Virus record (IMG/VR): IMGVR_UViG_3300006217_000025
Span: 14,347-78,346 of that record
Direction: 5' to 3' (one strand)
Origin: a virus
Lineage: Duplodnaviria; Caudoviricetes
Length of the DNA stretch: 64,000 bases
Shown: positions 15,986 through 64,000 of the stretch, in pieces
How positions within the stretch are numbered: the first letter of the stretch is position 1
Layout of the letters: every line of letters starts with the position of its first letter
Made by a program: the position numbers and the translations under genes
The notes under the pieces: generated by a model
Databases searched by the model: none
Seen by the model: the letters and a program-made list of their open reading frames with translations, nothing else
What the model was told of the DNA's origin: nothing

Positions 15986-15988
15986 AAA

Positions 15989-16180: not shown

Positions 16181-16212
16181 ATTTATTCTCCTAATTTGAA
16201 GTAAATATTTAA

Positions 16213-16289
16213 TGGTTGGGAAGACAGGATTCGAACCTGTGACCATCTAGTCCCAAACCAGATGCACTACCAAACTGTGCTACTTCCCA
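16213..16289 (-). tRNA. tRNA-Pro(TGG)
   Basis: TGGGAAG/CTTCCCA acceptor, TTTGGGA loop, canonical T arm. Confidence 0.92.
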
Positions 16290-16294
16290 ATAAA

Positions 16295-16370
16295 TGGCGG
16301 GCACTACAGGATTTGAACCTGTGACCTATTGATTAACAGTCAACCGCTCTGCCAACTGAGCTAAGCACCC
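16295..16370 (-). tRNA. tRNA-Asn(GTT)
   Basis: GGGTGCT/AGTGCCC acceptor, CTGTTAA loop, GCCA end. Confidence 0.92.
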
Positions 16371-47166: not shown

Positions 47167-47448
47167 GTGAATAGTGCAGAATTTAAACATTTCAAACTTC
47201 ATGCAGACAGTACGCTAAAAAGCATGACAAAAGATGAATTGGTTAGTTATATTCATATGTTATATCACAATTGGGGTGTTGTTGATGAGAGATTGTGTAA
47301 TGGTATTGATTATAGTCGCAAACTTGATAAAGCACTAGATAAAGCGTGTGAAGAATTAGTAAGGGCTTATCCATGCGGTGTCAATAGGTGTAATACTAAT
47401 TGTCATAAAGAAAGTTGGGAAGAGTGGTTGATGAAAAATGACTATTGA
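47167..47448 (+). CDS. Hypothetical protein
   Basis: GTG start, coupled to the next gene. Confidence 0.55.
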   Translation: MNSAEFKHFKLHADSTLKSMTKDELVSYIHMLYHNWGVVDERLCNGIDYSRKLDKALDKACEELVRAYPCGVNRCNTNCHKESWEEWLMKNDY

Positions 47449-48364: not shown

Positions 48365-48377
48365 AAAGGAACTAGAG

Positions 48378-49007
48378 ATGAAAATACACAATAAAAAATT
48401 GATTCAGCCTTATTTTGATGATGTTTGGAACGGAAATAAAACATTTGAGATAAGGAAAAACGACTGTGATTATCAAATTGGGGATTTTCTAATTCTTCAT
48501 GAATTGACAAATGAAACAATACAAATAGAAGGTAAAAAATTATACAGAATTAAGGCTTTGATTGATTTTGGTGATGTAAAAGCTGGAGATTTAGGCGGTT
48601 TTATAGAAAAAGAAAGTAATTTAAGCCATCTTGGTAGCGCTTGGATATATGATGATGCTAAGGTGTATGGCAACGCTGAGGTGTATGGTAACGCTTGGAT
48701 ATATGATGACGCTGAGGTGTGTGGTAACGCTAGGGTGTGTGATGACGCTATGGTGTGTGGTAACGCTATGGTGTGTGATGATGGTGATTATGCATGTGTT
48801 AAAGGTTTTGGAACGGAATATAGAAACACCACGTTTTATAAACAGAAAAATGGAAGTGTTGGTGTGAATTGTGGGTGTTTCACTGGCACATTAGGGGAGT
48901 TTAGAAATCAGGTTAAAAAAACAAGAAAAGGGAAAATTGAAAAAGAATATTTGATGATAGCTGATTTAATAGAATATCATTTTGCAGAAGAAGGAGAGGG
49001 ATTATAA
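48378..49007 (+). CDS. Chimeric ORF: DUF3850/ASCH-like N-terminus fused to a hexapeptide (left-handed beta-helix) repeat protein
   Basis: KTFEIRKNDCDYQIGDFLILHE joined to LTNETIQIEGKKLYRIKAL...GG..E and A.VYGNA repeats. Confidence 0.7.
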   Translation: MKIHNKKLIQPYFDDVWNGNKTFEIRKNDCDYQIGDFLILHELTNETIQIEGKKLYRIKALIDFGDVKAGDLGGFIEKESNLSHLGSAWIYDDAKVYGNAEVYGNAWIYDDAEVCGNARVCDDAMVCGNAMVCDDGDYACVKGFGTEYRNTTFYKQKNGSVGVNCGCFTGTLGEFRNQVKKTRKGKIEKEYLMIADLIEYHFAEEGEGL

Positions 49008-49288
49008 TAACAAAGGAAGAGTTAGAACAATACGTGCCGTTGAAGAAATGGAGAACAGAGGCTATTAGAAATAATAGAAAAGAGGAAATTGCTATATTGG
49101 AAGAAAGAATGAAAGCCATAGAAAAGGCGATTTCAACAACATCATCTAATGTAGATGTTTATAGAGCGCTACATTACAGGTACATATTAGGGATGGAGTT
49201 AAAGGCGATTGCAAAAAAAACAAACTTCTCTATTGCGACAGTTAGCAGAAATTTGAAAAAAGGTTTAAAGATGATAAACCATGCGTAA
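49004..49288 (+). CDS. ArpU/RinA-like late transcription activator (probable ATA start)
   Basis: C-terminal HTH (RY..G..L..IA...NFS..TVSR); AAGGAGAGGG SD then ATA 49004 overlapping the upstream TAA. Confidence 0.65.
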   Translation: MITKEELEQYVPLKKWRTEAIRNNRKEEIAILEERMKAIEKAISTTSSNVDVYRALHYRYILGMELKAIAKKTNFSIATVSRNLKKGLKMINHA

Positions 49289-49305
49289 CGTTTGCATGGT
49301 ATCAT
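49272..49305 (+). promoter_or_regulatory. Putative late promoter, copy 1
   Basis: TGATAAACCATGCGTAACGTTT-N6-TATCAT; identical 22-mer at 54434. Confidence 0.65.
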
Positions 49306-49374
49306 ATAGGTGCAGTCATGGAATTGCACCTCTTTCTTTTTAATTTTATAAGGTGGATAAAATCCACCGAATAA

Positions 49375-49450
49375 GGCAGGGTGGAGCAGAAGGAAGCTTA
49401 TCAGTCTTATTAGCTGAGGGTCGCAGGTTCAAGTCCTGCCCCTGCAACCA
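49375..49450 (+). tRNA. Initiator-type (fMet body) tRNA with TAT anticodon
   Basis: G1xA72 mismatch, G2-C71, C3-G70, A11-U24, A73, CCA; anticodon arm TCAGT-CTTATTA-GCTGA; T arm GCAGG-TTCAAGT-CCTGC. Confidence 0.85.
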
Positions 49451-49501
49451 TTTAATTTACCATGCTTCATAGCATGGATTTTTTTGAAAGGAATTAAAGA
49501 A

Positions 49502-49633
49502 ATGATAGAAAAAATGTTAGCGATCAAAAGGGAAATATATACAACGGATTCATGGAAGCGTAGAAATGATTTACAGAAGCATTTAGATAGCTTAGAAAAA
49601 GAATGGTTTAAAAACAAGAAGGTGATAAAATAG
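49502..49633 (+). CDS. Small hypothetical protein
   Basis: 43 aa, GAAAGGA SD; stop overlaps the terS ATA. Confidence 0.5.
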   Translation: MIEKMLAIKREIYTTDSWKRRNDLQKHLDSLEKEWFKNKKVIK

Positions 49634-50007
49634 CTAGACCAAAAAAAGAAATTGACATTAAACAATTTGAAAAATTATGTTCATTGCAATGTACACAAGC
49701 GGAGATATGTGCGTTTTTTGATATTTCAGAGAAAACACTGCAATCATGGTGCAAAAAAACGTATAATGACGGTTTTTCCCAAGTATTCGCCAAAAAGAGA
49801 GGATTAGGAAAGATATCGCTAAGAAGAATGCAATGGCAACTTGCTGAAAGAAATGCCTCGATGGCAATTTTTCTAGGTAAGCAGTTCTTGGGGCAAACGG
49901 ATAAAGTTGAGCAAAGCGTTATTGATGTAACGAAGATAAATGAATTAAATGCGTCTGTGCTTGATAATATTGCGCCTACAAGAGCGATAGAGGATTTTGA
50001 AGAATAA
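49630..50007 (+). CDS. Terminase small subunit (probable ATA start)
   Basis: ATA 49630 after AAGGTG gives (M)ARPKKEID.KQFEKLC.LQCT..EIC...SLRR.QW...AIFLGKQ.LGQ.D. Confidence 0.8.
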   Translation: MARPKKEIDIKQFEKLCSLQCTQAEICAFFDISEKTLQSWCKKTYNDGFSQVFAKKRGLGKISLRRMQWQLAERNASMAIFLGKQFLGQTDKVEQSVIDVTKINELNASVLDNIAPTRAIEDFEE

Positions 50008-51311
50008 ATATACCTTGTGCGTTCAATGAGCGTCAGATGAATTATTTAAGGCGAACACTTACATCATGGCTAAATGTAGCAGAAGGCGGGAAGCGTGGGT
50101 CTAAAAACGTTCTAAACACCTATGCTTTCTGTATCAATCTTGAAACACACCCTGACAAAATACATTTAATCGCAGGTGTATCAAATGCCACGGCTAGAAT
50201 CAATATTGCGGAATGTGATGGATACGGTATTTTCAATTATTATGAGGGAAGATATCGAGAGGGGAAATTTCAAGAAAAAACGTGTATTTACGTTCAGACA
50301 AAAACAGGTGAAAAGATTATACTTGTTGCTGGTGGAAGAAAGAACGGTGACGAAGCTTATATCAAAGGTTTCACAATAGGCAGTGCATATATAACAGAGG
50401 CTAATGAATGTCATGAGAATTTTCTGAAAGAAGTATTTGATAGAACGCTGTCATCTTCTAATAGAAAGATATTTCACGATTTAAATCCAAAAGAAGAGCA
50501 TCATTTCTATTATACTGAAATATTAGCCTATCATGAGAAAATGCAAAAAGAAGATGATGATTACGGCTATAATTATGGGCATTTCACGATTGCCGATAAT
50601 ATGAGTATTTCTAATAAACGATTAAGGGAAATTTTGAAAACTTATGACAAAAATACAGTTTGGTACAAACGTGATATTTTAGGCGATAGAGCAGTAGCCG
50701 AAGGGTTAATCTTCCGTTATTTTGCAAATGATCCTGAACCATACTTGATTGATGAGAAAAAAATCGAAAAAACATTCAGTCATATTATTATTGGTATTGA
50801 CTTTGGCGATAGTGGGTCAAAATATGTGTTTACAGCTATGGGTTTTAAAAATGGTTGGAAAGACTTGATAGCATTAGAAGAACATGAGATAGAAAAAAGC
50901 AATGGGATAGATGCTAAAAGACTTTGTAACGAGTTTATTTTGTTTTATAGACGTGTTTTAGAAAAATGGGGGTATGTAGAATGGATATTCTGTGATAGTG
51001 CTTCTAACACCCTTATAAATACGCTTAGAAGTGCAGCAAAAGAAAACAATCTAAGATACAGCAATATTGCAGGTGTAGTCAAGAACGAAGTAAGGGAAAG
51101 ACCGCAAATGGTTGACTTGCTACTTTGTACAGATAGATTGAAAATCAATCGAAAATGCAAAGGAATAATTAAAGCATTGTCAAGGCTGAAATGGGATGAG
51201 AAAGAGCCAGACATTCCGGAAGATTTAAACATTGATAATATCAATGATATTTGGGATAGCTTCTGTTACACGTTCATTACACATACGAAATATATAGAAT
51301 TAAAACGATAG
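50004..51311 (+). CDS. Terminase large subunit (probable ATA start)
   Basis: EGGKRGSK Walker A, ITEAN Walker B, GIDFG nuclease motif; ATAA overlap with terS stop. Confidence 0.88.
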   Translation: MNIPCAFNERQMNYLRRTLTSWLNVAEGGKRGSKNVLNTYAFCINLETHPDKIHLIAGVSNATARINIAECDGYGIFNYYEGRYREGKFQEKTCIYVQTKTGEKIILVAGGRKNGDEAYIKGFTIGSAYITEANECHENFLKEVFDRTLSSSNRKIFHDLNPKEEHHFYYTEILAYHEKMQKEDDDYGYNYGHFTIADNMSISNKRLREILKTYDKNTVWYKRDILGDRAVAEGLIFRYFANDPEPYLIDEKKIEKTFSHIIIGIDFGDSGSKYVFTAMGFKNGWKDLIALEEHEIEKSNGIDAKRLCNEFILFYRRVLEKWGYVEWIFCDSASNTLINTLRSAAKENNLRYSNIAGVVKNEVRERPQMVDLLLCTDRLKINRKCKGIIKALSRLKWDEKEPDIPEDLNIDNINDIWDSFCYTFITHTKYIELKR

Positions 51312-51324
51312 ACGGGGTGATAGA

Positions 51325-52713
51325 ATACAAAATTTTATAACAAGCTTTTTAGCTAAAAAAGGATATAGAGTTGATATAAATGCGCTAGATAGTATTATTG
51401 ACGTAACAAATAAATGGTACACAAATGAGGCATTGCCTTTTCATAAGGCGATGACAGTCAATGGCGAAAGATATGATTTAGAAAGAACGAACTTTGCTAA
51501 AAGACTATGTGCTGATGACGCCAATTTAATAGAATGTGCAGAAATAAACGCTAGTCAAAGCAATGAAATAAACGATCTCATCAATAAAGTGCTAGACGAC
51601 AATAATTTCAAGGTGATGTATCGAAAACAAGTTGAGCAAATGTCGGCAAATGGAACTGTCGGTGCTTATATCAGAATAGACAATGCAGACATATTAGATG
51701 ATGGTACTTTTATCAATGGAGAAATCATTATAGAATATTGTGATACATTAAATATCGTTCCATTAACAGTTATTCACAATCAGATAATCGAATGTGCATT
51801 CACAGGTCATGATATCGAGGATAATAAAGACGTTTACACCTTAATTATTTTCAAAATAGAAAACGGGCTATACAAATGCGAGAACTATCAATTTGATGAA
51901 AACGGCAGAGAGCTTGTCAACAGAACACAGATTGTAGAGTTAAGCGATGTCAAGCCTTTTGCGATTATGCGAACAGCTGAAAATAATAACATGAAAATGA
52001 AAGGATACGGCTATCCGAAATTATGGAGTGCTATTCCTTGCCTTGAAATCATTGACCTTGTTATGACGATGTGGAAAAGAGATTTAGACAAGTCTGATAA
52101 AATTGTTCTTATAAATGAAGAACTGTGCAAACGGAATGAGGAAGGTGAAGTCATACCACCAACCAAAGAAATGAAAAAAATCTTCGTTCAAGTCGGAAGC
52201 GAGAAATTGCCCGAGGAAAAAGCGATGTATCAAGAATATAATCCAACTGTTCGTATTGATGAAATTGAAAGGTCGTTAGAGCTGTCCTTGTCAATGCTCT
52301 CGATGTCGTTCGGATTCGGTACAAAAAAATATACTTTTGAGCAAGGCAGAATATTGACCGCTACCGAATATGTAGGCGATAAACAAGACAGCATGCAGGA
52401 AATCAACAAACAAAGAGATGAGAGCATACAGTATATCAAAGATATAGTTCATGCAATTGTCTATTTCTACAATATCAATAATCAGTCTAATATCATGGTT
52501 GATGAAATTAAAGTTGACTTTGATGACAGCTACATCGAAGATAAACAAGCTATGGCTAAAAGGATGAGAGAAGACGCTATTGCTTTTGAAAGCAATACAC
52601 TTAAATTGTGGTACTTGATGAAGCAGTATAATCTTACAGAAGAAGAAGCTCAAAAAATCATCTTGGAGATAGAATCAAATTTCCAAGATGATGGCGATGG
52701 TGATGAAGAATGA
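51325..52713 (+). CDS. Portal protein, SPP1 gp6-like (probable ATA start)
   Basis: Follows terL; GGGGTG SD then ATA 51325; G...Y.F...TATE...FDDS..ED motifs. Confidence 0.82.
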   Translation: MQNFITSFLAKKGYRVDINALDSIIDVTNKWYTNEALPFHKAMTVNGERYDLERTNFAKRLCADDANLIECAEINASQSNEINDLINKVLDDNNFKVMYRKQVEQMSANGTVGAYIRIDNADILDDGTFINGEIIIEYCDTLNIVPLTVIHNQIIECAFTGHDIEDNKDVYTLIIFKIENGLYKCENYQFDENGRELVNRTQIVELSDVKPFAIMRTAENNNMKMKGYGYPKLWSAIPCLEIIDLVMTMWKRDLDKSDKIVLINEELCKRNEEGEVIPPTKEMKKIFVQVGSEKLPEEKAMYQEYNPTVRIDEIERSLELSLSMLSMSFGFGTKKYTFEQGRILTATEYVGDKQDSMQEINKQRDESIQYIKDIVHAIVYFYNINNQSNIMVDEIKVDFDDSYIEDKQAMAKRMREDAIAFESNTLKLWYLMKQYNLTEEEAQKIILEIESNFQDDGDGDEE

Positions 52714-53774
52714 GAGATGAAGAAAATCTTGAAGAAAATGCACAAGAACTTATTGACCTAGCACAGTTGTTTGAAATGGCTTTGTTTGTCGGCATGCTAG
52801 GAGAGATAAAAAAATGTTTGAATAGCCAATCCACAAAAAGCGAATGTATTTATCGTATTAGAAAAATGGTAGCAGCGAAAACAAAACAATTTGCAAAAGA
52901 TACTAGTCAAGGCATTAAAGAAGTGGTTAAAAAGGGCAATGACATCAGTTATAAAGGATTCAGAAAGAAAGTAAAGAAGATGGTTAAATATGATGAGATT
53001 ACCGAAATTTATGCTAAAAAAACACAGAAAGAATTTAAGAAATACCTCAAAACAAGAGGTATAGCATACGGTAATCAAACACCTACACAGTTCTTTACTA
53101 GCTTTATCGAAAAACATTTAGATGATGTATTAGAGGGTAGAATGCCGATTGAAAAGGCGATAGAGAGTGCTATAACGGAAATGTCTAAGAACGGAATAAG
53201 ACTTGTCCAATATGATAGCGGTGTTAGAAAAAACGTAGATGTTTGGGTACGTCAACAGATGATATATGCACAAAGGGAAAGCGTGCGTGATTTAACTCTG
53301 AAAATCGCCAAAGAAAATGGTGTAACTATATTCGAATTTGATGCTCATGCAAATGCCCGACCTAGCCATCAAAGGTGGCAGGGGAAAAGGTTTGACATAA
53401 CCGGCAAGGAATATCCGACAAAAAAGCAGTTATGCAATGATGAAGATGAAGATTATGGCTGTCTGCATAGGTTCTATCCTGTGTGGGACAAAAAAGACAA
53501 GTATTCTTATTCAAAAGATCAATTGAAAAATATCAATACACAGCCGTTTGAATGGAATGGCAAATTGTATGATGGATATGAAGCTAAACAGAAAGCTCGT
53601 TCAATGGAACGTGATATACGTCAATTAAAGCGTGAAAAGAATTTAAGAGAGCTTGAAGGCTTAGACACAACAGATATAAAAGCTCGTCTAAGGGTCAAAA
53701 ACAAGCAATATAGAAGCTTTATGGAAAGATTTGGTACTTATCCAAGAAATAACAGAATACGAGTTGTTAAATAA
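52710..53774 (+). CDS. Minor capsid protein (Phage_min_cap2-like)
   Basis: H..ARPSH..WQGK, GC.H.F.P and Q.AR.MER.IR..KR motifs. Confidence 0.8.
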   Translation: MRDEENLEENAQELIDLAQLFEMALFVGMLGEIKKCLNSQSTKSECIYRIRKMVAAKTKQFAKDTSQGIKEVVKKGNDISYKGFRKKVKKMVKYDEITEIYAKKTQKEFKKYLKTRGIAYGNQTPTQFFTSFIEKHLDDVLEGRMPIEKAIESAITEMSKNGIRLVQYDSGVRKNVDVWVRQQMIYAQRESVRDLTLKIAKENGVTIFEFDAHANARPSHQRWQGKRFDITGKEYPTKKQLCNDEDEDYGCLHRFYPVWDKKDKYSYSKDQLKNINTQPFEWNGKLYDGYEAKQKARSMERDIRQLKREKNLRELEGLDTTDIKARLRVKNKQYRSFMERFGTYPRNNRIRVVK

Positions 53775-53836
53775 AATTTTAGCATATTTTAGTTTTTGAT
53801 TATTGATTTTATATATTTAAAGCTTTATAATGGTAG

Positions 53837-53942
53837 TAGCTAAGGGGTTGCTCCCCCTTAACTACTTAAAGCTTTACAGCTTTTCTATGAGGCTTATAAA
53901 CCTTTGAAGATTGGTAGTTCTGCAAGGTTTCAAGCCTTTTTT
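53837..53942 (+). ncRNA. Putative antisense sRNA
   Basis: TTGATT-17-TATAAT (53803-53831), hairpin TAAGGGG/CCCCTTA, terminator AAGG/CCTT+T; overlaps the 3' half of the minus-strand small ORF. Confidence 0.5.
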
Positions 53943-53978
53943 GTTGCACCATATCAGGTACATATTCCGTAAGTTCAT
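53874..53978 (-). CDS. 34-aa basic peptide (moron)
   Basis: GGAGGTG SD, TTGACA-17-TATAAT (54036-54008); MNLRNMYLIWCNKKGLKPCRTTNLQRFISLIEKL. Confidence 0.6.
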   Translation of the reverse strand: MNLRNMYLIWCNKKGLKPCRTTNLQRFISLIEKL

Positions 53979-54131
53979 TTTATCACCTCCCTCACCTTAC
54001 ATATACTATTATAAAGCATTTGCTTAATTTTGTCAATAGTTTAGTTAATTATTTGCTATATTTTTTTAATTAAAGTATTGATTTAATTAAATGATTGCTT
54101 TATAATTATATGTGAAAGTGAGGTTACATAT

Positions 54132-54344
54132 ATGGCAACAGAAAAACAAATAAAAGCGGTTATTGCACAAGCTTCTACAAATCAAAAGAAACTAGCTGAA
54201 AGTATCGGTATGACCCCTGCAAACTTTAATCAAAAATTAAAAAGATGTACTTTTACCGATGAAGAATTAAAGGAGATTGCAAACGAACTCGGAGCAACTT
54301 ATCATTGTTATTTTGAATTTGAAGATGGTACTAAAATATATTAG
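54132..54344 (+). CDS. Cro/CI-type HTH protein
   Basis: QKKLAESIGMTPANFNQKLKR HTH; own promoter TTGATT-17-TATAAT and downstream terminator. Confidence 0.8.
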   Translation: MATEKQIKAVIAQASTNQKKLAESIGMTPANFNQKLKRCTFTDEELKEIANELGATYHCYFEFEDGTKIY

Positions 54345-54433
54345 TAAAAGAGCCTTATCCCAATTTAAAGGGATAGAGCTTTTTTAGTTTAATGCTTAAC
54401 TTTAGCCTATTTTTTTGTTTTTTCTTTTAAAGT

Positions 54434-54467
54434 TGATAAACCATGCGTAACGTTTTCAAGTTAAAAT
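54434..54467 (+). promoter_or_regulatory. Putative late promoter, copy 2
   Basis: TGATAAACCATGCGTAACGTTT-N6-TAAAAT upstream of the scaffold gene. Confidence 0.65.
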
Positions 54468-54541
54468 AAGTGTAGTGAGAAATCACTTCCCTTATCAGCG
54501 TAGAAGATACGCTTTATAAGAAACTTTATAGGAGGATTTAT

Positions 54542-55111
54542 ATGAAAAACATTAGTGAAATTTTAAAATCAAATGGAGTTGAAGTATCTGATGAACAGTT
54601 AAAAGCTATCAATAGCGAAGTAGTGGAAAACTACAGAACAATCACTGATTACAACAAGCAGAAAGATAAACTTGAACTATCTGAAAAGAAGTACAAAGAT
54701 ACCCAAAAAGCATTTGAAGATTTTAAACAAGGATTTGAAGGAGTGGACATTGCAGAACTCAAAGGAAAAGTCGACACCTTGACGAACACGATTGAAACTC
54801 AAAAGGGGGATTATGAAAAAAAGATTGCGAAAATGAACCTAGATTCTTTGTTAAATGAAATCGCAAAAGAAAAAGGGTGCAAGGATTATGAGCTTGCACA
54901 AAAAATGATTGATTATGAAGCTCTGTTATCTTCTAAAAATCAAAAAGAAGATATTGAAAAGCAATTTGCCACTTTAAAAGAAAACAAGCCTATTTTGTTT
55001 GAGGCAGAAAAGCCAAATGGTAAAAAAGGCGGGGTCATTCTCCCTAGCGGCGGAAATGGCGAAGAAGTACAAACAGATTTGAAAAGTGCATTAAAAGATT
55101 ATTACAAATAG
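54542..55111 (+). CDS. Scaffolding protein (GP20-like)
   Basis: Coiled coil, between minor capsid and MCP; AGGAGG SD. Confidence 0.75.
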   Translation: MKNISEILKSNGVEVSDEQLKAINSEVVENYRTITDYNKQKDKLELSEKKYKDTQKAFEDFKQGFEGVDIAELKGKVDTLTNTIETQKGDYEKKIAKMNLDSLLNEIAKEKGCKDYELAQKMIDYEALLSSKNQKEDIEKQFATLKENKPILFEAEKPNGKKGGVILPSGGNGEEVQTDLKSALKDYYK

Positions 55112-55124
55112 AGGGGGAATATAA

Positions 55125-56129
55125 ATAGCAATTACATTAGAAGAAGCTAAGGTTGGTATGACTAACAAAGTCGACCAAAATGTGATTGATGAGTTTAGAA
55201 GAAGCTCGTTATTATTAGATATGCTGACATTTGATGATACGATTTCACCAGGCACAGGTGGTAGCACATTAGGATATTCATACATCATGCTGAAAACACC
55301 TAGCACTGTTGCAACACGTAAAATCAATACAGAATACGCACCGGGAGAAGCCAAGAGAGAAGAAAAGACTTCAAAAGCTATTATTCTTGGTGGGACATTT
55401 GAAGTCGATCGTGTTATTGCGGAAACAGATGGTGCAGTAGATGAAGTACAGTTCCAATTACAAGAAAAAGTAAAGGCAGGGTCAAACTACTTCCATAATT
55501 TAGTTATCAATGGAACAAAAGAAACAAGTGGTGATGGCTATGTTACAGAAACATTTGACGGCTTGAAAAAGCTTTTGTCAGGTTCTGAAACCGAAATCAC
55601 GAGTGAATCAGATTTATCAACATCAGCATTAGTAGATACAAATTACAATTCATTCTTAGACGAATTGGATGCGTTCTTATCGACATTGGATGGAAAACCT
55701 AGCATTTTACTGATGAATAACAAAATGCTGACAAAAGTAAGAGCTTGTGCAAGACGTGCGGGCTATTATGACAGAACTAAAAATGATTTTGGACAGTTTG
55801 TGGAAACATACAATGGCATTCCGATGATGGATACAGGTGTGTATTATGACGGTACAAGCACAAAAGATGTTATTGAAACAACTGCACCAAGTTCAAGCGC
55901 ATATGGTGAAACTTCTATTTATGCGGTTTCGTTAGGCTTAAATGCTTTTCATGGAATTTCAATTGACGGTTCAAAGATGTTAAGAACATACTTGCCAAAC
56001 TTTAAAGAACCAGGTGCTGTAAAAAAAGGTGAAGTTGAATTGATTGCCGGTGTAGTGTTGAAAAACTCCAACAAGGCAGGCGTTTTAAAAGGTATCAAGA
56101 TTTCGCCAAAATTGACAGCTGCTAAATAA
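55125..56129 (+). CDS. Major capsid protein (probable ATA start)
   Basis: GAGGGGG SD then ATA 55125 gives (M)AITLEEAKVGMTNKVDQ.VIDEFRR. Confidence 0.85.
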   Translation: MAITLEEAKVGMTNKVDQNVIDEFRRSSLLLDMLTFDDTISPGTGGSTLGYSYIMLKTPSTVATRKINTEYAPGEAKREEKTSKAIILGGTFEVDRVIAETDGAVDEVQFQLQEKVKAGSNYFHNLVINGTKETSGDGYVTETFDGLKKLLSGSETEITSESDLSTSALVDTNYNSFLDELDAFLSTLDGKPSILLMNNKMLTKVRACARRAGYYDRTKNDFGQFVETYNGIPMMDTGVYYDGTSTKDVIETTAPSSSAYGETSIYAVSLGLNAFHGISIDGSKMLRTYLPNFKEPGAVKKGEVELIAGVVLKNSNKAGVLKGIKISPKLTAAK

Positions 56130-56148
56130 ATGAAAAGGGGAGTTAGAT

Positions 56149-56502
56149 ATGAACAATTTAGTTGATTGGGAGTATTACAACTCCCATTTTCCTAATCTAA
56201 GCGAAGAAGATTTTAAAAAGACTTTTTATAAGGCTGAAAGAGTAGTTTTAAAGCGTGTTTCTAAAAACGTGGACAATTTATCAGAAGAAGAAAAAACAAG
56301 TGTCAAAGATTGTATATGCGATATTATCAATAATGTTTTCGGAACAAACAATGCTAAAGGTTTAGCAAGTGTTTCAAATGATGGATATTCAGAATCCTAT
56401 GTCAATATGACAGAAGAACAGCAGGAACACAGAATAGAAAGCATTATCAAAATGTGGCTAAATGACTTAGGAATTTTGAAAGGACATTTTATAGCTTTTT
56501 GA
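56149..56502 (+). CDS. Head-tail connector protein
   Basis: After MCP; SVSNDGYSESY motif. Confidence 0.7.
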   Translation: MNNLVDWEYYNSHFPNLSEEDFKKTFYKAERVVLKRVSKNVDNLSEEEKTSVKDCICDIINNVFGTNNAKGLASVSNDGYSESYVNMTEEQQEHRIESIIKMWLNDLGILKGHFIAF

Positions 56503-56918
56503 TGTTCAACGATACGATTACCATATACAATCACTACTATGATAAATTGACGAAACTAGACAGATGGAATAGAACGATTTTAAAAGGCGTTATGTGGCGT
56601 CAAACAACTACTAAGACAGTGTCTAGCAATAAGATACAAATTGACGATAGTATATCTATCACTATACCGCATAGAAGCGGTTATTTAAGCCCACAGAAGT
56701 ATATTCAAATGCCTAATGATAAAATGTCTGATTATTGGACAATCAACGCTGAAAACAATGCGGACATCATTGTTTTAGGGGAAATCAATCAAGACTTGAC
56801 AGATAGTTATACGTTAAGAGAACTAAGAAAAGACTATGATAATGTTGTAACTGTGATGGCGGTCAGCGATAATTCACGTGTAGATCATTTAAAACATTGG
56901 AAGGTAACTGCTAAATAA
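56499..56918 (+). CDS. Head closure/minor capsid protein
   Basis: M.N..ITIYN...HW.V pattern; position. Confidence 0.65.
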   Translation: MMFNDTITIYNHYYDKLTKLDRWNRTILKGVMWRQTTTKTVSSNKIQIDDSISITIPHRSGYLSPQKYIQMPNDKMSDYWTINAENNADIIVLGEINQDLTDSYTLRELRKDYDNVVTVMAVSDNSRVDHLKHWKVTAK

Positions 56919-57301
56919 GTAATGTAGAAATCAGATTCGAAATTCATGGCTTAAAAAGAATAATGCAGGACCGAGGCTTGCAGGTTGGCGGGCGTGTTCA
57001 GAAATATATTGACAATGAAGTTATCAGATTGATGGCATCTTACACGCCAAAAGAAAGCGGAGCATTGATTGACAGTGCCGAGAAATTAACAGATATCGGC
57101 AGTGGTGAAGTCAAACAAGGCGGTAAATCAGTGCCTTATGCTAGGAAATTGTATTATTATGAAAAATCACCGGGTGCAAGAGGCGTGAGATGGTCAGGAG
57201 GAGCGCCAAGAGGCTCATATTGGTTTGAACGAATGAAAAATGAAGGTGGAGCTAAAGCTATCTTGCGAGGTGCAATCAGAGAGGCGGGTGCTAAAAGATG
57301 A
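56915..57301 (+). CDS. Minor capsid/neck protein (probable ATA start)
   Basis: Y.P..SG.L...PYARKLYY...G..WFERMK; ATAA overlap at 56915. Confidence 0.7.
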   Translation: MSNVEIRFEIHGLKRIMQDRGLQVGGRVQKYIDNEVIRLMASYTPKESGALIDSAEKLTDIGSGEVKQGGKSVPYARKLYYYEKSPGARGVRWSGGAPRGSYWFERMKNEGGAKAILRGAIREAGAKR

Positions 57302-57714
57302 CGGTAGCACAAGCAATCAAGGATTGGCTCTATAATTTTCCAAAGTTGGATATTGACGAAAGGATAAGCACAGAACTTCTTCCAGCTGAAGCGGTGGCTT
57401 ATGCTTTATCTAAAAGCCCAAATAACATTGTAGAACAATTTGTGGATGGAAGTGAAAAAAGAACAGAATACTATACTTTTTTTGCAAGACAGTACACACA
57501 AATTGAAACAGAGAGAAATAGCAATGATGAATTTCTTGAAGAATTTGGAGAATGGGTCAATGAAAGAAACTTTAATGGGGATTTGCCAATCTTGGACAAT
57601 AACAGATATTGCGATAATATATCAGTTTCAAGCGGTTTTTATCTTTTTGAAACAGAAGAAAATCAAGGTATCTACTCATTTACAATCGAAATTATTTATC
57701 GGAAGGAGAGATAG
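57298..57714 (+). CDS. Tail terminator-like protein
   Basis: ATGA coupling; position. Confidence 0.6.
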   Translation: MTVAQAIKDWLYNFPKLDIDERISTELLPAEAVAYALSKSPNNIVEQFVDGSEKRTEYYTFFARQYTQIETERNSNDEFLEEFGEWVNERNFNGDLPILDNNRYCDNISVSSGFYLFETEENQGIYSFTIEIIYRKER

Positions 57715-57716
57715 AA

Positions 57717-58226
57717 ATAGAAGAAAAGTTTAAATCAACAACAGGAACAGAAGTAGCTAATGGATTAACCGTTAAAAAATATATGATTGGCTTGTTTCTT
57801 CAAATTGAAGATGTTTATAAGCGAATTAAAAAATCAACAACTCTTGAAATTGCGGTTGAAGCCAATACCGAAGAGCAAGACTTCATTGCGGATAAAACGC
57901 CGACAGAGTTATTGAAAAATTATGGGGTTTCATTAGCACAAGACTTAGCAATGATTAAAGGTGAAGAAGATTTTGAATTTATTTGGGAGAAGTTCTATAA
58001 CGCTATTCCAAACAATGAAGAAGTGAAAACAAAATGTATGATCGTGTTTATGTTTGACGGTGATAAAACCACAGGCTACAAGGCGTGGGAAACAGAAGCT
58101 AAAATCACTTTCGAAAACTTGAACGGTGTTGATTCAAAAATTAACTTCACAATCAATTTTGGCGATATTGAAAAAGGTATCGCTACAATGACAGATAATG
58201 TACCTACATTTACTAAAGGAGAATAG
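57717..58226 (+). CDS. Major tail (tube) protein (probable ATA start)
   Basis: GGAAGGAG SD then ATA 57717; position before the chaperones. Confidence 0.7.
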   Translation: MEEKFKSTTGTEVANGLTVKKYMIGLFLQIEDVYKRIKKSTTLEIAVEANTEEQDFIADKTPTELLKNYGVSLAQDLAMIKGEEDFEFIWEKFYNAIPNNEEVKTKCMIVFMFDGDKTTGYKAWETEAKITFENLNGVDSKINFTINFGDIEKGIATMTDNVPTFTKGE

Positions 58227-58231
58227 GAAGA

Positions 58232-58600
58232 ATGGCAACTTTATTTTATAACGGAAAAAGATATGATTTACCCAAGAAAACAATGGCGATTGTTGAAAAA
58301 GAGGATTTAATGCATACTAAATCAGCTTCATTAGTAGAAGCATATCAAAAACAATTCGATTATATCAAGGCATTATTTTCGGAAGAAGTGATGAATGATA
58401 TTTTTGGAACATCTGATTTAGATGAAATTGATATGACGGAATTGACTTTAGTTTGCAACATGGTTCATAGTGCCTATATGCAGAAAATCGTAGAACATCA
58501 GAAAAAAGAAAGTGAAATGATGGCAAATAATAAGGCACTTGAAAAAATTATCAGTGTGGGAAAATCAGTAGAAAAAATGATGGAAATTAAAAATAAATGA
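58232..58600 (+). CDS. Tail assembly chaperone
   Basis: Between tube and TMP. Confidence 0.55.
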   Translation: MATLFYNGKRYDLPKKTMAIVEKEDLMHTKSASLVEAYQKQFDYIKALFSEEVMNDIFGTSDLDEIDMTELTLVCNMVHSAYMQKIVEHQKKESEMMANNKALEKIISVGKSVEKMMEIKNK

Positions 58601-59148
58601 TTGATTTAAGAAAAAAAGGCTTACCTGATACTGTCTTAACGATAGATGGTAAGCCTGTTAAACTAAATACGGATTTTCGAGCATGGATTCAGTTTTGGGT
58701 AGATTTACAAAATGATGAAAATGATAGGGATATATCTTATCTTTTCGTAAACGAAGCCCCAAACATTGATGACTATATATTATACCAATTACAAATGTTT
58801 TTATACAATCCCTCTGAAACGCCAAAAAACGATGAATATGCAAGCGAAAAGATACTAGATTATGTGCTAGATGGAGAATATATATTCTCGGCTCTGTACG
58901 CCGTTTATGGCATTGATATAACTGAAATGGATATGCATTGGCATAAGTTTCAAGCACTGTGCAATAACGTTATCGGAGATAGTACGTTATGGGGATATGC
59001 AAAGTCAATGCGAGGATATACAAAGCCCTCTAAGTCTGATACTTTTGAAAAACAAAATGCGAGGGCTAAAGAAAGATGGTCATTCCCGATTAAATTGACT
59101 GATGAGGAATTAAGATTAAAGAATGAATTTGATGATTATTTTGGATAG
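58597..59148 (+). CDS. Gp15-like tail chaperone
   Basis: I.TDFR.W...D...I.SA....YGID....MHWHKF.AL pattern. Confidence 0.7.
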   Translation: MIDLRKKGLPDTVLTIDGKPVKLNTDFRAWIQFWVDLQNDENDRDISYLFVNEAPNIDDYILYQLQMFLYNPSETPKNDEYASEKILDYVLDGEYIFSALYAVYGIDITEMDMHWHKFQALCNNVIGDSTLWGYAKSMRGYTKPSKSDTFEKQNARAKERWSFPIKLTDEELRLKNEFDDYFG

Positions 59149-59162
59149 GTGGTGGTTCATGA

Positions 59163-61217
59163 ATACCTGATGGAAGCTTAGTATTTGATACAAAAATTGA
59201 TTCATCTAAATTAAAAAAAGGATTACAAGATATAAGTAGTGAAACAAAGGTAACTAAACAAGATACCGAACAGATGAATGACAGTTTAAAAAAAATAGAT
59301 AAAATATCTTTTGAAAATATCAAGGAAAATCTAAAAAATACTGCTGATGGTGTTAAAGATGTATTAACGCAATCAATAGAATCAAGAACAGGTTTAACAG
59401 GATTAGAAGATAAACTTGCGCAGATAGTTCCAAGTGGTAAATTTCTAGCGGTTTCTACTGCCATAGGTGCTATCGGAATTGCTTCTGTTAATTCGGCTTC
59501 ACAAATTGAAGTTGCAATGAGAAGATTTCAAGTACAAACAGGTATTGCAAACAATGAACTAGGGTTATATGAAGAACTTATGTTGTCCATATATCGTGGA
59601 AATTATGGGGAATCTATTGAAGATGTAGCTGATAGTATGGGTAAAGTGAAGCAGCAATTTGATAATTTAGATACCAATGAATTTCAAGATATCGTTGAAA
59701 ACGCATTAACGCTTCGTGATACCTTTGATATGGATGTTAACGAAACACTTAGAGGAACAAAGCAGTTAATGGAACAGTTTGGGATAAGTGGTTCGGAAGC
59801 TATGGATTTGATTGCTAGTGGTGCTCAGAATGGTTTAAATTATACAGATGAACTAGGGGATAATATTGCTGAATATGCTGGAAAATTTGCTCAAGCTGGG
59901 TATAGTTCAGAAGAATATTTTCAACTTTTAAAAAATGGGACAGAAGGCGGAGCATATAATCTTGATAAAATAAACGATGCCATTAACGAAGTAACGACTA
60001 GATTAGCAGATGGAACTATTGAAGAAAACCTTGAATTGTTTTCTAGTAGGACAGCCAATGTATTCAATGCATGGAAAGAAGGTAAAGCTACACAAAAAGA
60101 AGTTATAAATAGCATTATAAACGATATTTCGTCGTGCACAAATGAACAAGAGAAATTGACAATGGCAGCTACAGCCTTTGGTACAATGGGCGAAGATTCA
60201 AACGCTAAGTTTGTTGAATCGTTATTACCTGTTGGTGATACTTTCAAAGACATTGAAGGTACAATGAATGATGTCAAAGAAACAGCATCAAGTGGATTAG
60301 GTGCTTCATTGGAATCATTGAAAAGAAGTTTTGAAACTTTGTTAGTACCGTTAGGAGAATTATTTATTCCTGTGTTGGTTAAAATTATTGATTTCTTATC
60401 TTGGATTATTAGTCTTATCAGTGATGTGATAAGTATTGTTGCAGGATGGGTGATAAATTGGGAGGAAAGTTTAGCTTTTCTTCAAGAATTATGGGACACA
60501 TTTGCACAGTGGTTTGATGAAGGGGTTAAGGCTGTTGTAGATGGATTTACTAAAGATTTGCAAGGATTATTAGATTGGTTTGTTAATACATTCGGTCCGA
60601 TACTAGTGGATATATTTAAAATGGTATCAAATATATTTGGTGGAATGGTAAATGGAGTTTTAGGATATGCTAAAACGTGGCTTAATGGAATAAAGAATAT
60701 TATTAATAATATTATGGGAATTTTCAACGGTATAATCACATTTATTAAGGGTGTTTTCACGGGAAATTGGAAGCAAGCATGGAATGGCGTTAAACAAATT
60801 TTTAGCAACATTGTAAGTGGGTTTGTTAATATTATTAAAACACCAATCAATGCAATGATTGACCTTGTCAATGGCTTTATAGGTGGATTAAACAATATTA
60901 AAATACCTGATTGGGTTCCATTGGTTGGTGGTAAGGGATTAAGCATACCTACTATCCCTAAACTTGAAAGAGGCGGTATCTTGAAAAAAGGACAGGTCGG
61001 ATTATTAGAAGGTAATGGAGCGGAAGCAGTTGTACCACTTGACAGAAATAAGGCATGGATTAGAGCAGTTGCTAAGGATATGGCGTTTATTATGCCTGAA
61101 AGTACAAGAAATTCGTACAATCAAACCAATAACTTCTATACACCAGTTGAAACTCCTGATAAGGTCGCAAGAGCGTTGAGATTGCAACAACGATACGGAT
61201 TGGCAGGTGCTAAATAA
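59163..61217 (+). CDS. Tape measure protein (probable ATA start)
   Basis: AGGTGGTGG SD then ATA 59163 gives (M)PDGSLVFDTKID; helical repeats; IP.L..GGI C-terminus. Confidence 0.85.
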   Translation: MPDGSLVFDTKIDSSKLKKGLQDISSETKVTKQDTEQMNDSLKKIDKISFENIKENLKNTADGVKDVLTQSIESRTGLTGLEDKLAQIVPSGKFLAVSTAIGAIGIASVNSASQIEVAMRRFQVQTGIANNELGLYEELMLSIYRGNYGESIEDVADSMGKVKQQFDNLDTNEFQDIVENALTLRDTFDMDVNETLRGTKQLMEQFGISGSEAMDLIASGAQNGLNYTDELGDNIAEYAGKFAQAGYSSEEYFQLLKNGTEGGAYNLDKINDAINEVTTRLADGTIEENLELFSSRTANVFNAWKEGKATQKEVINSIINDISSCTNEQEKLTMAATAFGTMGEDSNAKFVESLLPVGDTFKDIEGTMNDVKETASSGLGASLESLKRSFETLLVPLGELFIPVLVKIIDFLSWIISLISDVISIVAGWVINWEESLAFLQELWDTFAQWFDEGVKAVVDGFTKDLQGLLDWFVNTFGPILVDIFKMVSNIFGGMVNGVLGYAKTWLNGIKNIINNIMGIFNGIITFIKGVFTGNWKQAWNGVKQIFSNIVSGFVNIIKTPINAMIDLVNGFIGGLNNIKIPDWVPLVGGKGLSIPTIPKLERGGILKKGQVGLLEGNGAEAVVPLDRNKAWIRAVAKDMAFIMPESTRNSYNQTNNFYTPVETPDKVARALRLQQRYGLAGAK

Positions 61218-62074
61218 TGAGTGTAGTGTGCAGAATTGTCAGAGATGACGGAAAAGAATTTAATATTGATAACAAGGCATGGAAAATACCAAGTGACGGT
61301 TTAGAGGGGTGGGATTACATCACCCCCGAAATCGGCACAAGTGCTAGAGCGTTTGGAGATGGTTCGTACATTTCTTCTAAAATTGTTACGGAGCAGGATA
61401 GAACAGTAACAGCGATATTGACGAATAAGAACCTTAATTCAATCATGCGAGATGTCGTACGTTCATTCTTTGGTGTGAAAAGAAGCTTTAAAGTTTATTT
61501 AACTTATCAAGGAACAATTAGGTGGTGTGAGGGAGAGTTAGTTGCTTTTTCATTACCCACCAACAACATTTATGAACCGTTGAAACTGACATTTACTATT
61601 CTATGTCCACAGCCTTATTTGTTAAGTGTAGATGAATTTGGCAAGAACATAGCGGAAGTTATGCCAAGATTTGGTTTTCCATACGTTTCACTTGTTAATA
61701 GTGGTTTTTTATTCAGTGAATATAAATTTGCGAAGGAAGTCATTCTTGATAACGATGGAGATGTAGAAACTTATGCCAAGATTGTTATTTCAGCTAATGG
61801 GGATGTAACGAATCCGATTATCAAGAAAGACGATAAATTCATTAAAATTTTAGATAAAATGGTGGAAAATGATGTTATTGTGATTGATTTAGTCAAAGAG
61901 CCTCCGACGGTCGAGAAAAATGGCAAGAGTATTATCGGAAAAACCACTAGAGATAGTTCTTTTGAAAAAATGAAGTTGAATATAGGCAGTAACACCATAT
62001 CATTTGACGCTGAATTTGGAAGCAACCTATTAGATGTTACAATTTACTACAATCAAAGATACGGGGGAATGTAA
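61217..62074 (+). CDS. Distal tail (Dit) protein
   Basis: After TMP; R.V...C.QPY...L..G.N.I pattern. Confidence 0.75.
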   Translation: MSVVCRIVRDDGKEFNIDNKAWKIPSDGLEGWDYITPEIGTSARAFGDGSYISSKIVTEQDRTVTAILTNKNLNSIMRDVVRSFFGVKRSFKVYLTYQGTIRWCEGELVAFSLPTNNIYEPLKLTFTILCPQPYLLSVDEFGKNIAEVMPRFGFPYVSLVNSGFLFSEYKFAKEVILDNDGDVETYAKIVISANGDVTNPIIKKDDKFIKILDKMVENDVIVIDLVKEPPTVEKNGKSIIGKTTRDSSFEKMKLNIGSNTISFDAEFGSNLLDVTIYYNQRYGGM

Positions 62075-63106
62075 ATAGAGTTTAAAGCACTGGACGAAAA
62101 ATTAAATCTTGTTTCCCTATTATCTCCCACGAATGTTCAATGGAACAGAAAATACTATGAGGCAGGAAATTTTGTGATTGAGATATCAGCTAATCAATAT
62201 TTAACTGATATGGCATATATTTATTGTTCAGAAAGAGCAGAGGTAGGAATGGTACAAAAGGTTTCACGAGAAGAAACGGGTAATGGTAAAATGGTTCAGT
62301 TAAGTGGCTTCTTTCTTGAAAAAAAGCTAGATGATAAAATTGTTTATCCCACTTTTTATGGCAGTGGAGAAATCACAGCAGTGCTAAGGCGTATGATAGA
62401 AACTTATAAAGAAGATATCGCTATAGAGATTCAATTAGCACGTGATACAGGCTCTAAGGTTGATTTTCAAGCAACTGGTGACGAATTAAGCAAGAAAGTA
62501 TATGAAGTTCTACATACTCAAGAAATGAGCTATAGAGTAACATATGACTATTTGAATAATAAATTGCTTCTAATGTTTTATAAAGGCGAGGATAAGACAC
62601 AAGATAGTGATAGCGATAGCTTTATTACTTTTTCAACAAGTTGGCATAATATCCAAAATTCGATAGTCGATGTAGATCATTCGAATTATAAGAACTTCTT
62701 TATCGTGGCAGGCATAGGAGAAGCCGAAGAACGTATAACAGTTGAAGTTGATTTATCAAATGGCGGTTACAAGAAAAAATTATTTGTCGATTCAAGAAAT
62801 ACTCAATATGATTCAAAAGAACAAACGCTTGAACAGTATAAACTAGAGCTTAGACAACAAGGATTGGAAAAAGCATTGGATTATGAGATTATAGAGAATG
62901 TGTCATTTACAGTCATTCCAAGTGGATATAAATATCTTGAGGATTATGATCTAGGAACGAAATGCGATGTAATGATAGATGATATAGGTATGTCATTTCA
63001 AACACGCATTATTGCGATATATGAAGTTTTTAAAGAAGGAAAGCATGAAATAGAATTAGAAGTTGGAAATCAAATCAAATCCAACTATCAAACATTGAGA
63101 ATATAG
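62075..63106 (+). CDS. Tail tip/hub protein (ReqiPepy6 gp37-like; probable ATA start)
   Basis: GGGGG SD then ATA 62075; QWNRKYYEAG.F, AG.GE..ER and DYDLG motifs. Confidence 0.72.
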   Translation: MEFKALDEKLNLVSLLSPTNVQWNRKYYEAGNFVIEISANQYLTDMAYIYCSERAEVGMVQKVSREETGNGKMVQLSGFFLEKKLDDKIVYPTFYGSGEITAVLRRMIETYKEDIAIEIQLARDTGSKVDFQATGDELSKKVYEVLHTQEMSYRVTYDYLNNKLLLMFYKGEDKTQDSDSDSFITFSTSWHNIQNSIVDVDHSNYKNFFIVAGIGEAEERITVEVDLSNGGYKKKLFVDSRNTQYDSKEQTLEQYKLELRQQGLEKALDYEIIENVSFTVIPSGYKYLEDYDLGTKCDVMIDDIGMSFQTRIIAIYEVFKEGKHEIELEVGNQIKSNYQTLRI

Positions 63107-63120
63107 AAAGGAGAATGTTA

Positions 63121-64000
63121 ATAGCTAAAATTACTGCATTTCCATACGATTCGCAGATTAGCGAATATGCAATTGACGGAACACCTATTTATGACAGAGC
63201 GATAGGAAGCTCCATTTTTAGGGATTTGTTTTTGAAATATTTTACGGAAGGGGTGTTCCCTAATCCGTCAACATCGTTTCAAGTAAATGAAAATTCTACA
63301 CAAGGAGCGATTGTTAAATCAGGATTTGCGAATATTCGAGGGGTAACAGTTATTGATGAAACAGACACAGAGATCGCCTTTGAAAAAAGTGATACACTAG
63401 ATAGAATTGATAGAGTGGTATTAAGGCATGATGATACAATCAGTGTTAGAAATACTTCTATCGTTGTTTTAAAAGGGACACCTGCGAGCAATCCTCAACC
63501 GCCCGCTATCACAAGGAATAAGACGATTTGGGATTTATGTCTTGCGGAAGTCAGAATTATTAAAAACTCAAAAGCTGTCGCACAGTCAAATATTACTGAT
63601 ACACGGCTAAATAGTCAATTATGTGGAATTGTAACAAGCACAATTAAAACGATTGATACAACAACATTATACAATCAAGTTAAGAATGATTTTGATAATT
63701 TCAGAAATCAGCAGCAATCAGAATACCATGAAATGATAGAAGGCAAGGGAAATGAATTTGATATATGGTTTAATTACATTAAGGATATGCTTGGCGAAGA
63801 TGTTGCAGGTTCGCTTCAAAATCAAATTCTTGATTTAAAAGAAGAGATGGGCACTCTAGACGAAGTGTATGCTAAAAAGACAGATGTCTATACAAGAGAA
63901 GAAACGAACAATATAGCTAATACAAAGCAAAACAAAGTTCTTTTTGGAACAACACCTCCATCAAATGATATGGGTGTAGATGGGGACATCTACATTCAAA
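63121..64000 (+). CDS. Baseplate/tail protein, truncated by the window end (probable ATA start)
   Basis: AAAGGAG SD then ATA 63121; frame open to 64000; RIDRVVLR and ITDTRLN..LCG.V motifs. Confidence 0.7.
   Translation, partial: MAKITAFPYDSQISEYAIDGTPIYDRAIGSSIFRDLFLKYFTEGVFPNPSTSFQVNENSTQGAIVKSGFANIRGVTVIDETDTEIAFEKSDTLDRIDRVVLRHDDTISVRNTSIVVLKGTPASNPQPPAITRNKTIWDLCLAEVRIIKNSKAVAQSNITDTRLNSQLCGIVTSTIKTIDTTTLYNQVKNDFDNFRNQQQSEYHEMIEGKGNEFDIWFNYIKDMLGEDVAGSLQNQILDLKEEMGTLDEVYAKKTDVYTREETNNIANTKQNKVLFGTTPPSNDMGVDGDIYIQ

Follow-up and report, generated by a model that had tools for sequence, protein, structure and literature searches.

We find that a gut-bacterial phage begins nine or ten of its virion genes with ATA instead of ATG and carries its own initiator-derived tRNA whose anticodon matches ATA, so that it appears to bring a private start codon. 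In the papers we searched such a system was found only as a laboratory design. The DNA analysed, referred to here as the window, is a stretch of 64,000 nucleotides of the IMG/VR virus record IMGVR_UViG_3300006217_000025 (positions 14,347 to 78,346). A first-pass annotation of the sequence alone had proposed that ten late genes of the window start at ATA, and that such starts would be unexpected without a dedicated decoder. Our analysis supports both arguments, with two corrections to the start sites, and a candidate decoder was found within the same interval. The features concerned are the following.

49007..49288 (+), small late-activator-like gene, start at ATA 49007 or possibly 49004
49308..49340 (+), terminator-like hairpin with a T run, between the activator gene and the tRNA
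49375..49450 (+), initiator-derived tRNA with anticodon UAU; CCA is encoded
49460..49486 (+), terminator-like hairpin with a T run, directly after the tRNA
49630..50007 (+), small terminase subunit (terS), ATA start overlapping the stop of the upstream 43-49 aa ORF (ATAG)
50004..51311 (+), large terminase subunit (terL), ATA start with an ATAA overlap on the terS stop
51325..52713 (+), portal protein, ATA start
55125..56129 (+), major capsid protein, ATA start
56915..57301 (+), neck or head-tail connector gene, ATA start with an ATAA overlap
57717..58226 (+), tail tube gene, ATA start
59163..61217 (+), tape-measure protein (TMP), ATA start directly after an in-frame TGA
62075..63106 (+), tail hub / distal tail protein (the homologous gene in relatives carries Sipho_Gp37), ATA start directly after the Dit stop
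63121..63999 (+), baseplate or tail gene cut by the window end, start at ATA 63121 or ATG 63115

ATA codons at the starts of late genes

All ten ATA codons are in frame with long ORFs, and each lies 4-9 nt after a purine-rich Shine-Dalgarno (SD) site with a duplex energy of about -4.6 to -10 kcal/mol, terS and terL being the weakest. The first downstream ATG, GTG or TTG has a weak SD or none at eight of nine sites (-6.7 kcal/mol at the hub GTG), and its use would remove 10, 18, 11, 36, 11, 16, 22, 37 and 33 codons. As the first-pass annotation described, ATAA stop/start overlaps occur at three sites (49004, 50004 and 56915), and we find an additional ATAG overlap at 49630. About 10 of 20 late genes start at ATA, against about 1 of 90 other genes in the 78-kb record (Fisher p about 2e-8).

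Comparison with 80 IMG/VR relatives places canonical starts where this phage has ATA. At the aligned first residue, relatives have ATG in 79 of 79 cases for the capsid gene and in 54 of 57 for portal, whereas for terL 24 have ATG and 15 have GTG. For terS, ATG is found at the aligned first residue in the one relative whose alignment reaches residue 1, while in three others the ATG lies a few codons upstream. For neck, tube, TMP and hub, the N-terminal lengths of relatives mostly agree with the ATA start within 0-7 residues, and the downstream canonical start would cut into aligned residues. The neck set is more scattered, as most relatives lie within -2 to +4 residues but some are 11-19 longer; the neck ATA itself is conserved in all relatives. 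Alignments of the tube gene begin before the downstream ATG, the N-terminus of TMP is homologous to relatives that start with ATG, ATA or AGG at the same place, and in 17 of 18 relatives the hub N-terminus lies within +1 to +3 residues. In accordance, the stretches between each ATA and the first canonical start evolve as coding sequence. Of 14 substitutions between the window and a roughly 96% identical relative, 12 are at third codon positions, and 12 are synonymous against 2 non-synonymous (p = 8e-5). These include three synonymous changes upstream of the GTG at 49034 in the activator gene and two in the N-terminal extension of terL; those in the hub extension are mostly synonymous.

Two start sites need to be revised. 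Relatives have TTA at 49004 but keep the ATA at 49007, so that 49007 is the likelier start of the activator, a gene with only a weak sigma-70 region 4 hit (Pfam Sigma70_r4_2, E = 7e-5, below the curated cut-off). For the gene at 63121, an ATG at 63115 abuts the SD with about 0 nt spacing and cannot be excluded, whereas the ATA is 6 nt from the SD with A at -1. In addition, the first-pass annotation wrote the N-termini with Met, yet the first residue could be Ile.

Megablast of the late module against GenBank phages found no match, and independent assemblies were used instead. The ATA codons are kept in 11 loci from other public assemblies that are 91-100% identical around the start sites. A search for relatives of the minus-strand portal and of the first plus-strand gene, intended to test whether the two arms belong together, returned nothing usable.

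An initiator-derived tRNA with anticodon UAU

The tRNA at 49375-49450 was detected by ARAGORN and scores 48.6 bits with the Rfam tRNA model. Its only full-length E. coli match is the initiator tRNA-Met, the four full-length phage matches that were fetched and examined are initiator-type CAU tRNAs, and no tRNA-Ile appeared among the similar tRNAs listed. It has a G1.A72 mismatch and, like initiators, purine 11 paired with pyrimidine 24 (A11:U24, D stem GAGC/GCUU). G2-C71, C3-G70 and A73, which are formylase determinants in E. coli, are present and invariant in all nine tRNAs aligned. On the other hand, the anticodon is UAU rather than CAU, and position 37 is U, a pyrimidine that is unusual there for any tRNA. 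The anticodon stem reads A29-U41 / G30-C40 / U31.G39, so only the middle of the three G-C pairs typical of initiators is kept; in E. coli this is the essential pair, and natural au/GC/gu initiators exist (Shetty et al. 2017, PMC5389676). The tRNA is identical in the ten related loci that cover it, although comparison with its flanks was uninformative, because the whole 400-nt region is conserved.

An origin of the tRNA as an attP relic was rejected, given that it is a full cloverleaf with compensatory stem changes and sits away from the integrase. Likewise, the neighbouring PAPS-reductase-like gene was rejected as a helper, because it is absent from a relative (L133) that keeps the system.

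Co-variation of anticodon and start codon in related phages

The strongest support comes from related phages. A lineage with a 72%-identical capsid (L152) starts capsid, terS, portal, TMP and other genes with ATA. We predicted that it would have its own decoder and then found a diverged UAU tRNA with G1.A72, A11:U24 and U37 (L153, which also starts terS with ATA). Four other contigs (L144, L150, L151 and L155, of which L144 and L150 are close relatives) start the capsid gene with AGG; in L144, L150 and L151, portal, tube and TMP also start with AGG. Each of the four carries a tRNA with anticodon CCU, a 1:72 mismatch and U37. Mismatches at 1:72 in the related recoded tRNAs are G.A, C.A and C.U, and the CCU tRNAs have U11:A24 in place of A11:U24. 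All 6 contigs that cover the region hold the matching tRNA. A further contig with CCU (L022) has AGG at two genes, whereas relatives whose initiator-like tRNA has CAU show no such starts.

The base preceding the start is A at 30 of 31 recoded starts, against 53 of 105 canonical starts (p = 5e-7), and all six recoded tRNAs have U37. Pairing between position 37 and position -1 has been shown for E. coli initiator tRNA, including an A37U variant (PMC10018350).

Another phage record with an initiator-like UAU tRNA (G001, 76.6 kb, 46% GC) shows no obvious ATA-start enrichment, and no clear signal was found in other records carrying such tRNAs (L086/L101 with 64% GC, L127/L136, L128 and L135); the hosts of all these records, G001 included, seem to use few SD sites. 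Some of these tRNAs have a perfect initiator body (L129, L130, L132) and may be simple C34-to-T variants or errors.

Discussion

We consider it likely, although without expression, proteomic or biochemical evidence, that the late module carries a private translation-start system. The phage tRNA descends from the bacterial initiator and keeps the acceptor-stem features that, in E. coli, direct formylation and keep a tRNA out of elongation, while its anticodon is the exact complement of the ATA found at normal SD spacing. We infer that once this tRNA is made, it is charged with Ile or Met and placed in the ribosomal P site on SD-A-AUA sites, enabling efficient translation of these genes; without it, only the host initiator could read them, weakly, as a near-cognate codon. 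Virion-gene translation would in this way be coupled to the phage's own tRNA. A fourth base pair between U37 and the A that precedes almost every recoded start probably strengthens the all-A/U codon-anticodon helix. The activator gene, however, lies upstream of the tRNA and itself starts with ATA, which raises a bootstrapping question.

Are the ATA starts real but read by the host initiator tRNA(CAU), acting as built-in attenuators as at infC and at ccpN and citZ in S. aureus, with the UAU tRNA serving merely as an extra elongator? AUA gives about 3-4% of AUG in E. coli reporters and, with extended SD sites, 10-30% of AUG in S. aureus using the native initiator, so some translation needs no special tRNA. 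The SD sites here are strong, the tRNA lacks the full set of three G-C pairs, and AUA is an ordinary Ile codon with 108 internal occurrences in the late genes, so a supply role in elongation is not excluded by codon usage. Nevertheless we regard this explanation as unlikely. The tRNA resembles initiators only, the most abundant virion protein is among the recoded genes, and anticodon and start codon co-vary across lineages. Moreover, near-cognate reading cannot explain the sister lineages, in which AGG mismatches CAU at the middle position and a CCU tRNA of the same build is present.

It is very unlikely that the genes start at the first downstream ATG, GTG or TTG and that the upstream ATA codons are coincidental. 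Automatic gene calls in public data do use these starts, yet most of them have a weak SD or none, relatives align from the ATA position, the upstream stretches change mostly at synonymous sites, and the pattern recurs at 9-10 genes. Least likely are sequencing or assembly errors, or early decay of a dead prophage. A single G-to-A change would give ATA from ATG, but the ATA codons are identical in IMG, ENA, Logan and NCBI-derived assemblies that differ by up to about 8% elsewhere, and the late ORFs are intact. Neither the matching anticodon on a conserved tRNA nor the parallel AGG/CCU system can arise from sequencing error; a modified-base artefact was likewise rejected.

A more far-reaching reading is possible but remains tentative: the start signal may be effectively four bases (A-AUA, and A-AGG in sister phages), read by an extended anticodon that includes U37, and the proteins may begin with a residue other than Met, formyl-Ile here and Arg in the AGG phages. 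Under this reading the phage would run a truly orthogonal initiation channel that locks virion genes to its own tRNA and can drift to new codons by single anticodon changes.

If the system works as inferred, it represents a natural second start codon defined by a virus, and adds a layer to phage gene regulation in which virion genes are translated only when the phage's own initiator tRNA is present. The UAU/ATA, CCU/AGG and CAU variants within one phage group show how start codons can evolve. There is also a practical consequence, as gene callers truncate or miss the main virion proteins of these phages; the public capsid entries are 323 aa, 11 residues short, and other genes lose up to 37.

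The closest known element is the bacterial initiator tRNA-fMet, including the CAU initiator genes that many phages carry. The phage tRNA is 75-81% identical to the E. coli and phage initiators found by search, and differs from initiator tRNA-fMet in its anticodon, in U37 instead of A37, in the two lost G-C pairs, and in G rather than C at position 1. Engineered initiators with swapped anticodons follow the same logic, as in the amber initiator used for phiX174 biocontainment (bioRxiv 10.1101/2024.07.29.605542), where essential phage capsid genes depend on the new tRNA, and tRNAfMet(GAU), which reads AUC in E. coli (PMC3643588). Those are laboratory constructs with the tRNA supplied by the host strain, whereas here the system is natural, the tRNA is encoded by the phage, and the system has diversified. 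In stop-codon recoding of gut phages (PMC10879173, PMC11210395) a phage-encoded suppressor tRNA likewise changes the meaning of a codon concentrated in late genes, which may time or lock late-gene translation, yet it acts during elongation on in-frame stops; the late ORFs here are open under table 11 and the reassigned codon is the start. Natural AUA/AUU starts read by the native initiator (infC; S. aureus ccpN and citZ, PMC13009471) share a strong or extended SD site, but these are single regulatory genes kept at low output with no dedicated tRNA, whereas here half of a virion module is affected, including the capsid gene, and a cognate tRNA lies in the same operon. Elongator tRNA-Ile(UAU) of Mycoplasma mobile and of B. 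subtilis tilS-deletion suppressors (PMC3919564) shares the anticodon that reads AUA, but these tRNAs probably have normal elongator bodies with a paired 1:72, whereas the phage tRNA has an initiator body.

Organization of the record and genomic context of the late module

The window corresponds to bases 14347-78346 of a single 78,346-bp virus record with 31% G+C, in which the genes in window 1-24000 lie on the minus strand and the rest lie on the plus strand. The findings below concern the plus-strand late module, comprising the activator-like gene, tRNA, terS, terL, portal, minor capsid, scaffold, capsid, connectors, tube, chaperones, tape measure, Dit, hub and baseplate. The features needed to follow the text, in window positions, are:

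7517-9037, minus strand: portal of a second packaging module
9037-9042, minus strand: in-frame ATT and ATA behind a very strong SD at the minus-strand portal gene
9055-11130, minus strand: large terminase of the second packaging module
14556-16370, minus strand: cluster of eight tRNAs
15646-15720, minus strand: ARAGORN call of a tRNA-Met(CAU)
41805-43079, plus strand: reverse transcriptase gene (RVT_1) in the early region, followed by small ORFs
47438-49004, plus strand: PAPS-reductase-like gene and DUF3850/ASCH gene, directly upstream of the activator
49375-49450, plus strand: tRNA with anticodon UAU, between the activator gene and terS

In a 231-kb ENA contig and a 66-kb ENA contig, the same late module lies in a prophage whose lysis genes are followed by host genes. 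In the 231-kb contig the layout is that of an ordinary temperate prophage of roughly 40 kb, with integrase, CI-like repressor, ERF, replication genes, methylase, tRNA, late genes, holin and amidase, followed by bacterial genes. The nearest named homologues of one flanking host gene are only 56% identical, in Coprobacillaceae, and the host is therefore an uncultured low-GC Bacillota member. In the 78-kb record, on the other hand, the module is joined to a different early region and to a minus-strand arm (window 1-24000 and genome 1-6907) that carries its own terminase and portal, the tRNA cluster and, at the left end, a giant open ORF of more than 2300 codons; the record may therefore represent one genome, tandem prophages, a hybrid or a chimera. 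The minus-strand portal gene has a very strong SD followed by in-frame ATT and ATA, and then 41 codons with no ATG, GTG or TTG. Given that the base before this ATA is T, unlike the plus-strand ATA starts, this may be an ATT start read by the host initiator. The tRNA-Met(CAU) called by ARAGORN at 15646-15720 has a GGG/CCC anticodon stem but a poor acceptor stem and no CCA, and Rfam gives it only a weak tRNA-Sec-like score (22 bits); it may be a degenerate or unusual tRNA.

ATA start codons in the late module

The first-pass annotation had proposed that ten late genes start at ATA. We find that all ten ATA codons are present and in frame with long ORFs, each located behind a purine-rich SD at 4-9 nt, whereas the next ATG, GTG or TTG lies 10-37 codons downstream. 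Eight of those nine canonical codons have weak or no SD, the hub GTG being the exception. A gene-by-gene scan of the 78-kb record shows that early genes use ATG with an SD almost without exception, while SD-backed ATA codons with no usable canonical start occur in the late module, plus one minus-strand gene. This amounts to roughly 10 of 20 late genes against 1 of 90 others (p about 2e-8).

Comparison with 80 related IMG/VR loci, whose capsid is 65-75% identical, places canonical start codons where this phage has ATA. In 79 of 79 relatives the residue aligned with the ATA of the capsid gene is ATG, with the same N-terminal peptide. Likewise, 54 of 57 relatives have ATG at the portal start, and at terL 24 have ATG and 15 have GTG; for terS, the one relative whose alignment reaches residue 1 has ATG there. 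For neck, tube, tape measure and hub, the N-terminal lengths of relatives mostly match an ATA start within 0-7 residues, and the downstream canonical start would remove aligned residues. The gene for which the annotation placed the start at 63121 is ambiguous, as an ATG lies two codons upstream but abuts the SD.

The ATA codons are not an artefact. Two IMG/VR contigs at 99% identity (L081, L082) keep the ATA codons they cover and the tRNA, as do two ENA contigs at 93-97% (L133, L134) and further ENA and Logan contigs at 92-98% (L140-L143, L145-L147). The one exception is position 49004, the start assigned to the activator in the first-pass annotation, which is TTA in several relatives while the ATA at 49007 is kept; the activator therefore probably starts at 49007. 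Between each ATA and the first canonical start, the window and L134 differ at 14 positions, of which twelve are third codon positions, and 12 of the changes are synonymous (p = 8e-5). These stretches are therefore translated. In L134, codon 10 of the neck gene is ATG where the window has ATT (window 56944), which creates a new in-frame ATG close to the ATA start. The PAPS-reductase-like gene upstream of the activator is missing from L133, which keeps the tRNA and the ATA starts.

An initiator-like tRNA with anticodon UAU

ARAGORN and Rfam find a tRNA with anticodon UAU at 49375-49450, flanked by terminator-like hairpins, which is the candidate decoder of the ATA starts. It has a G1.A72 mismatch, G2-C71, C3-G70, discriminator A73 and A11:U24, which in established work on E. 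coli tRNA-fMet are the features that direct formylation and keep the initiator away from EF-Tu. Among all E. coli tRNAs, only the initiator matches it over its full length, and the four full-length matches examined among GenBank phages are all initiator-type CAU tRNAs. It departs from the family in three ways: the anticodon, U37 in place of A37, and an anticodon stem of A-U / G-C / U.G in place of three G-C pairs. Shetty et al. (PMC5389676) showed that G30-C40 is the essential part of that motif in E. coli and that natural au/GC/gu initiators exist. G30-C40 is invariant in all the tRNAs aligned here. The cloverleaf is maintained through compensatory changes, as 96% of cells are paired and 12 pairs have changes on both sides. 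As UAU and the CCU anticodon of related phages each differ from CAU by one base, Met, Ile or Arg are all conceivable as the amino acid attached.

Initiator-like tRNAs with anticodon UAU are rare but scattered in metagenomes (among L086/L101, L127/L136, L128, L129, L130, L132 and L135) and in two bacterial genomes, of Arthrobacter (L137) and Roseobacter (L139); some have a perfect initiator body and could be plain C34-to-T variants or errors. An unrelated large phage (G001, a 76.6-kb IMG/VR record of 46.6% GC, covered by L118-L121) has an initiator-like tRNA(UAU) with an A1xA72 mismatch at 55274-55347 as its only tRNA. Most of its genes start with ATG and no ATA-start enrichment was seen; its host seems to use few SD sites.

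Anticodon and start codon co-vary among related phages

A protein search with the capsid sequence showed that public collections hold the capsid protein of this phage only in a form that starts at the internal ATG (323 aa; P0002-P0004 and other entries), and that several more distant clusters are also 10-14 residues short. Calls for terS, terL, portal, tube and TMP in the related contigs are likewise short, and the activator gene is not called at all. Examination of the contigs of the more distant clusters revealed that five of them (L144, L150, L151, L155 and L156) have AGG at the capsid start position behind a strong SD. Of these, L144, L150, L151 and L155 carry, just upstream of the scaffold gene, a tRNA with anticodon CCU, a 1:72 mismatch, G2-C71, C3-G70, A73 and U37, whereas L156 does not reach that region. 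In L144, L150 and L151, AGG also starts portal, tube and tape measure, and in some of them terS, minor capsid and a tail gene as well; in each case AGG sits where relatives have ATG.

Two other contigs, L152 and L154, have ATA at the capsid start. We predicted a UAU initiator-like tRNA upstream in the L152 phage and found it in contig L153. It is a diverged copy with G1.A72, A11:U24, G-C / G-C / U.G and U37, and that phage also starts terS, portal, TMP, Dit and other genes with ATA. All 6 contigs that cover the relevant region hold the tRNA that matches their start codon.

Among the ATG-start relatives (L001-L063), many carry an initiator-like tRNA between the minor capsid and scaffold genes, about 650-720 nt upstream of the capsid gene, with anticodon CAU in some and CCU in many. 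Those with anticodon CAU that were scanned (L001, L005) show no recoded starts, while L022, with CCU, has AGG at the minor capsid and tape-measure genes but ATG at the capsid gene. There are also odd forms: L004 has no clear anticodon, and L046, L056, L058 and L062 have a 94-nt tRNA with anticodon UUU and an insertion.

The base before the start codon is A at 30 of 31 recoded starts across lineages, against 53 of 105 SD-backed canonical starts (p = 5e-7), and all six recoded tRNAs have U37, where initiators have A37. Hollerer and Jeschek (PMC10018350) showed pairing between initiator position 37 and mRNA position -1 in E. coli, and found that an A37U initiator is tolerated. A fourth base pair between the tRNA and the mRNA is thus suggested, though not proven.

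Discussion

The co-variation of anticodon and start codon is the main support for the inferred mechanism, in which the phage tRNA reads the recoded starts. Reading of AUA by the host initiator is possible at a low level, giving 3-4% of AUG in E. coli and 10-30% in S. aureus with extended SD sites, and this may explain how the activator, which lies upstream of the tRNA and itself starts with ATA, gets going. It does not explain, however, the initiator-type tRNA or the AGG/CCU sister system; because AGG mismatches the CAU anticodon at the middle position, near-cognate reading by the host initiator is not a credible explanation there. Initiation at the downstream canonical codons, sequencing error and decay are contradicted by the comparisons with relatives and independent contigs.

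In the full-text literature searched, no natural phage-encoded non-AUG initiator tRNA was found. The closest known systems are engineered initiators, including a phiX174 biocontainment design, and stop-codon recoding by phage suppressor tRNAs.
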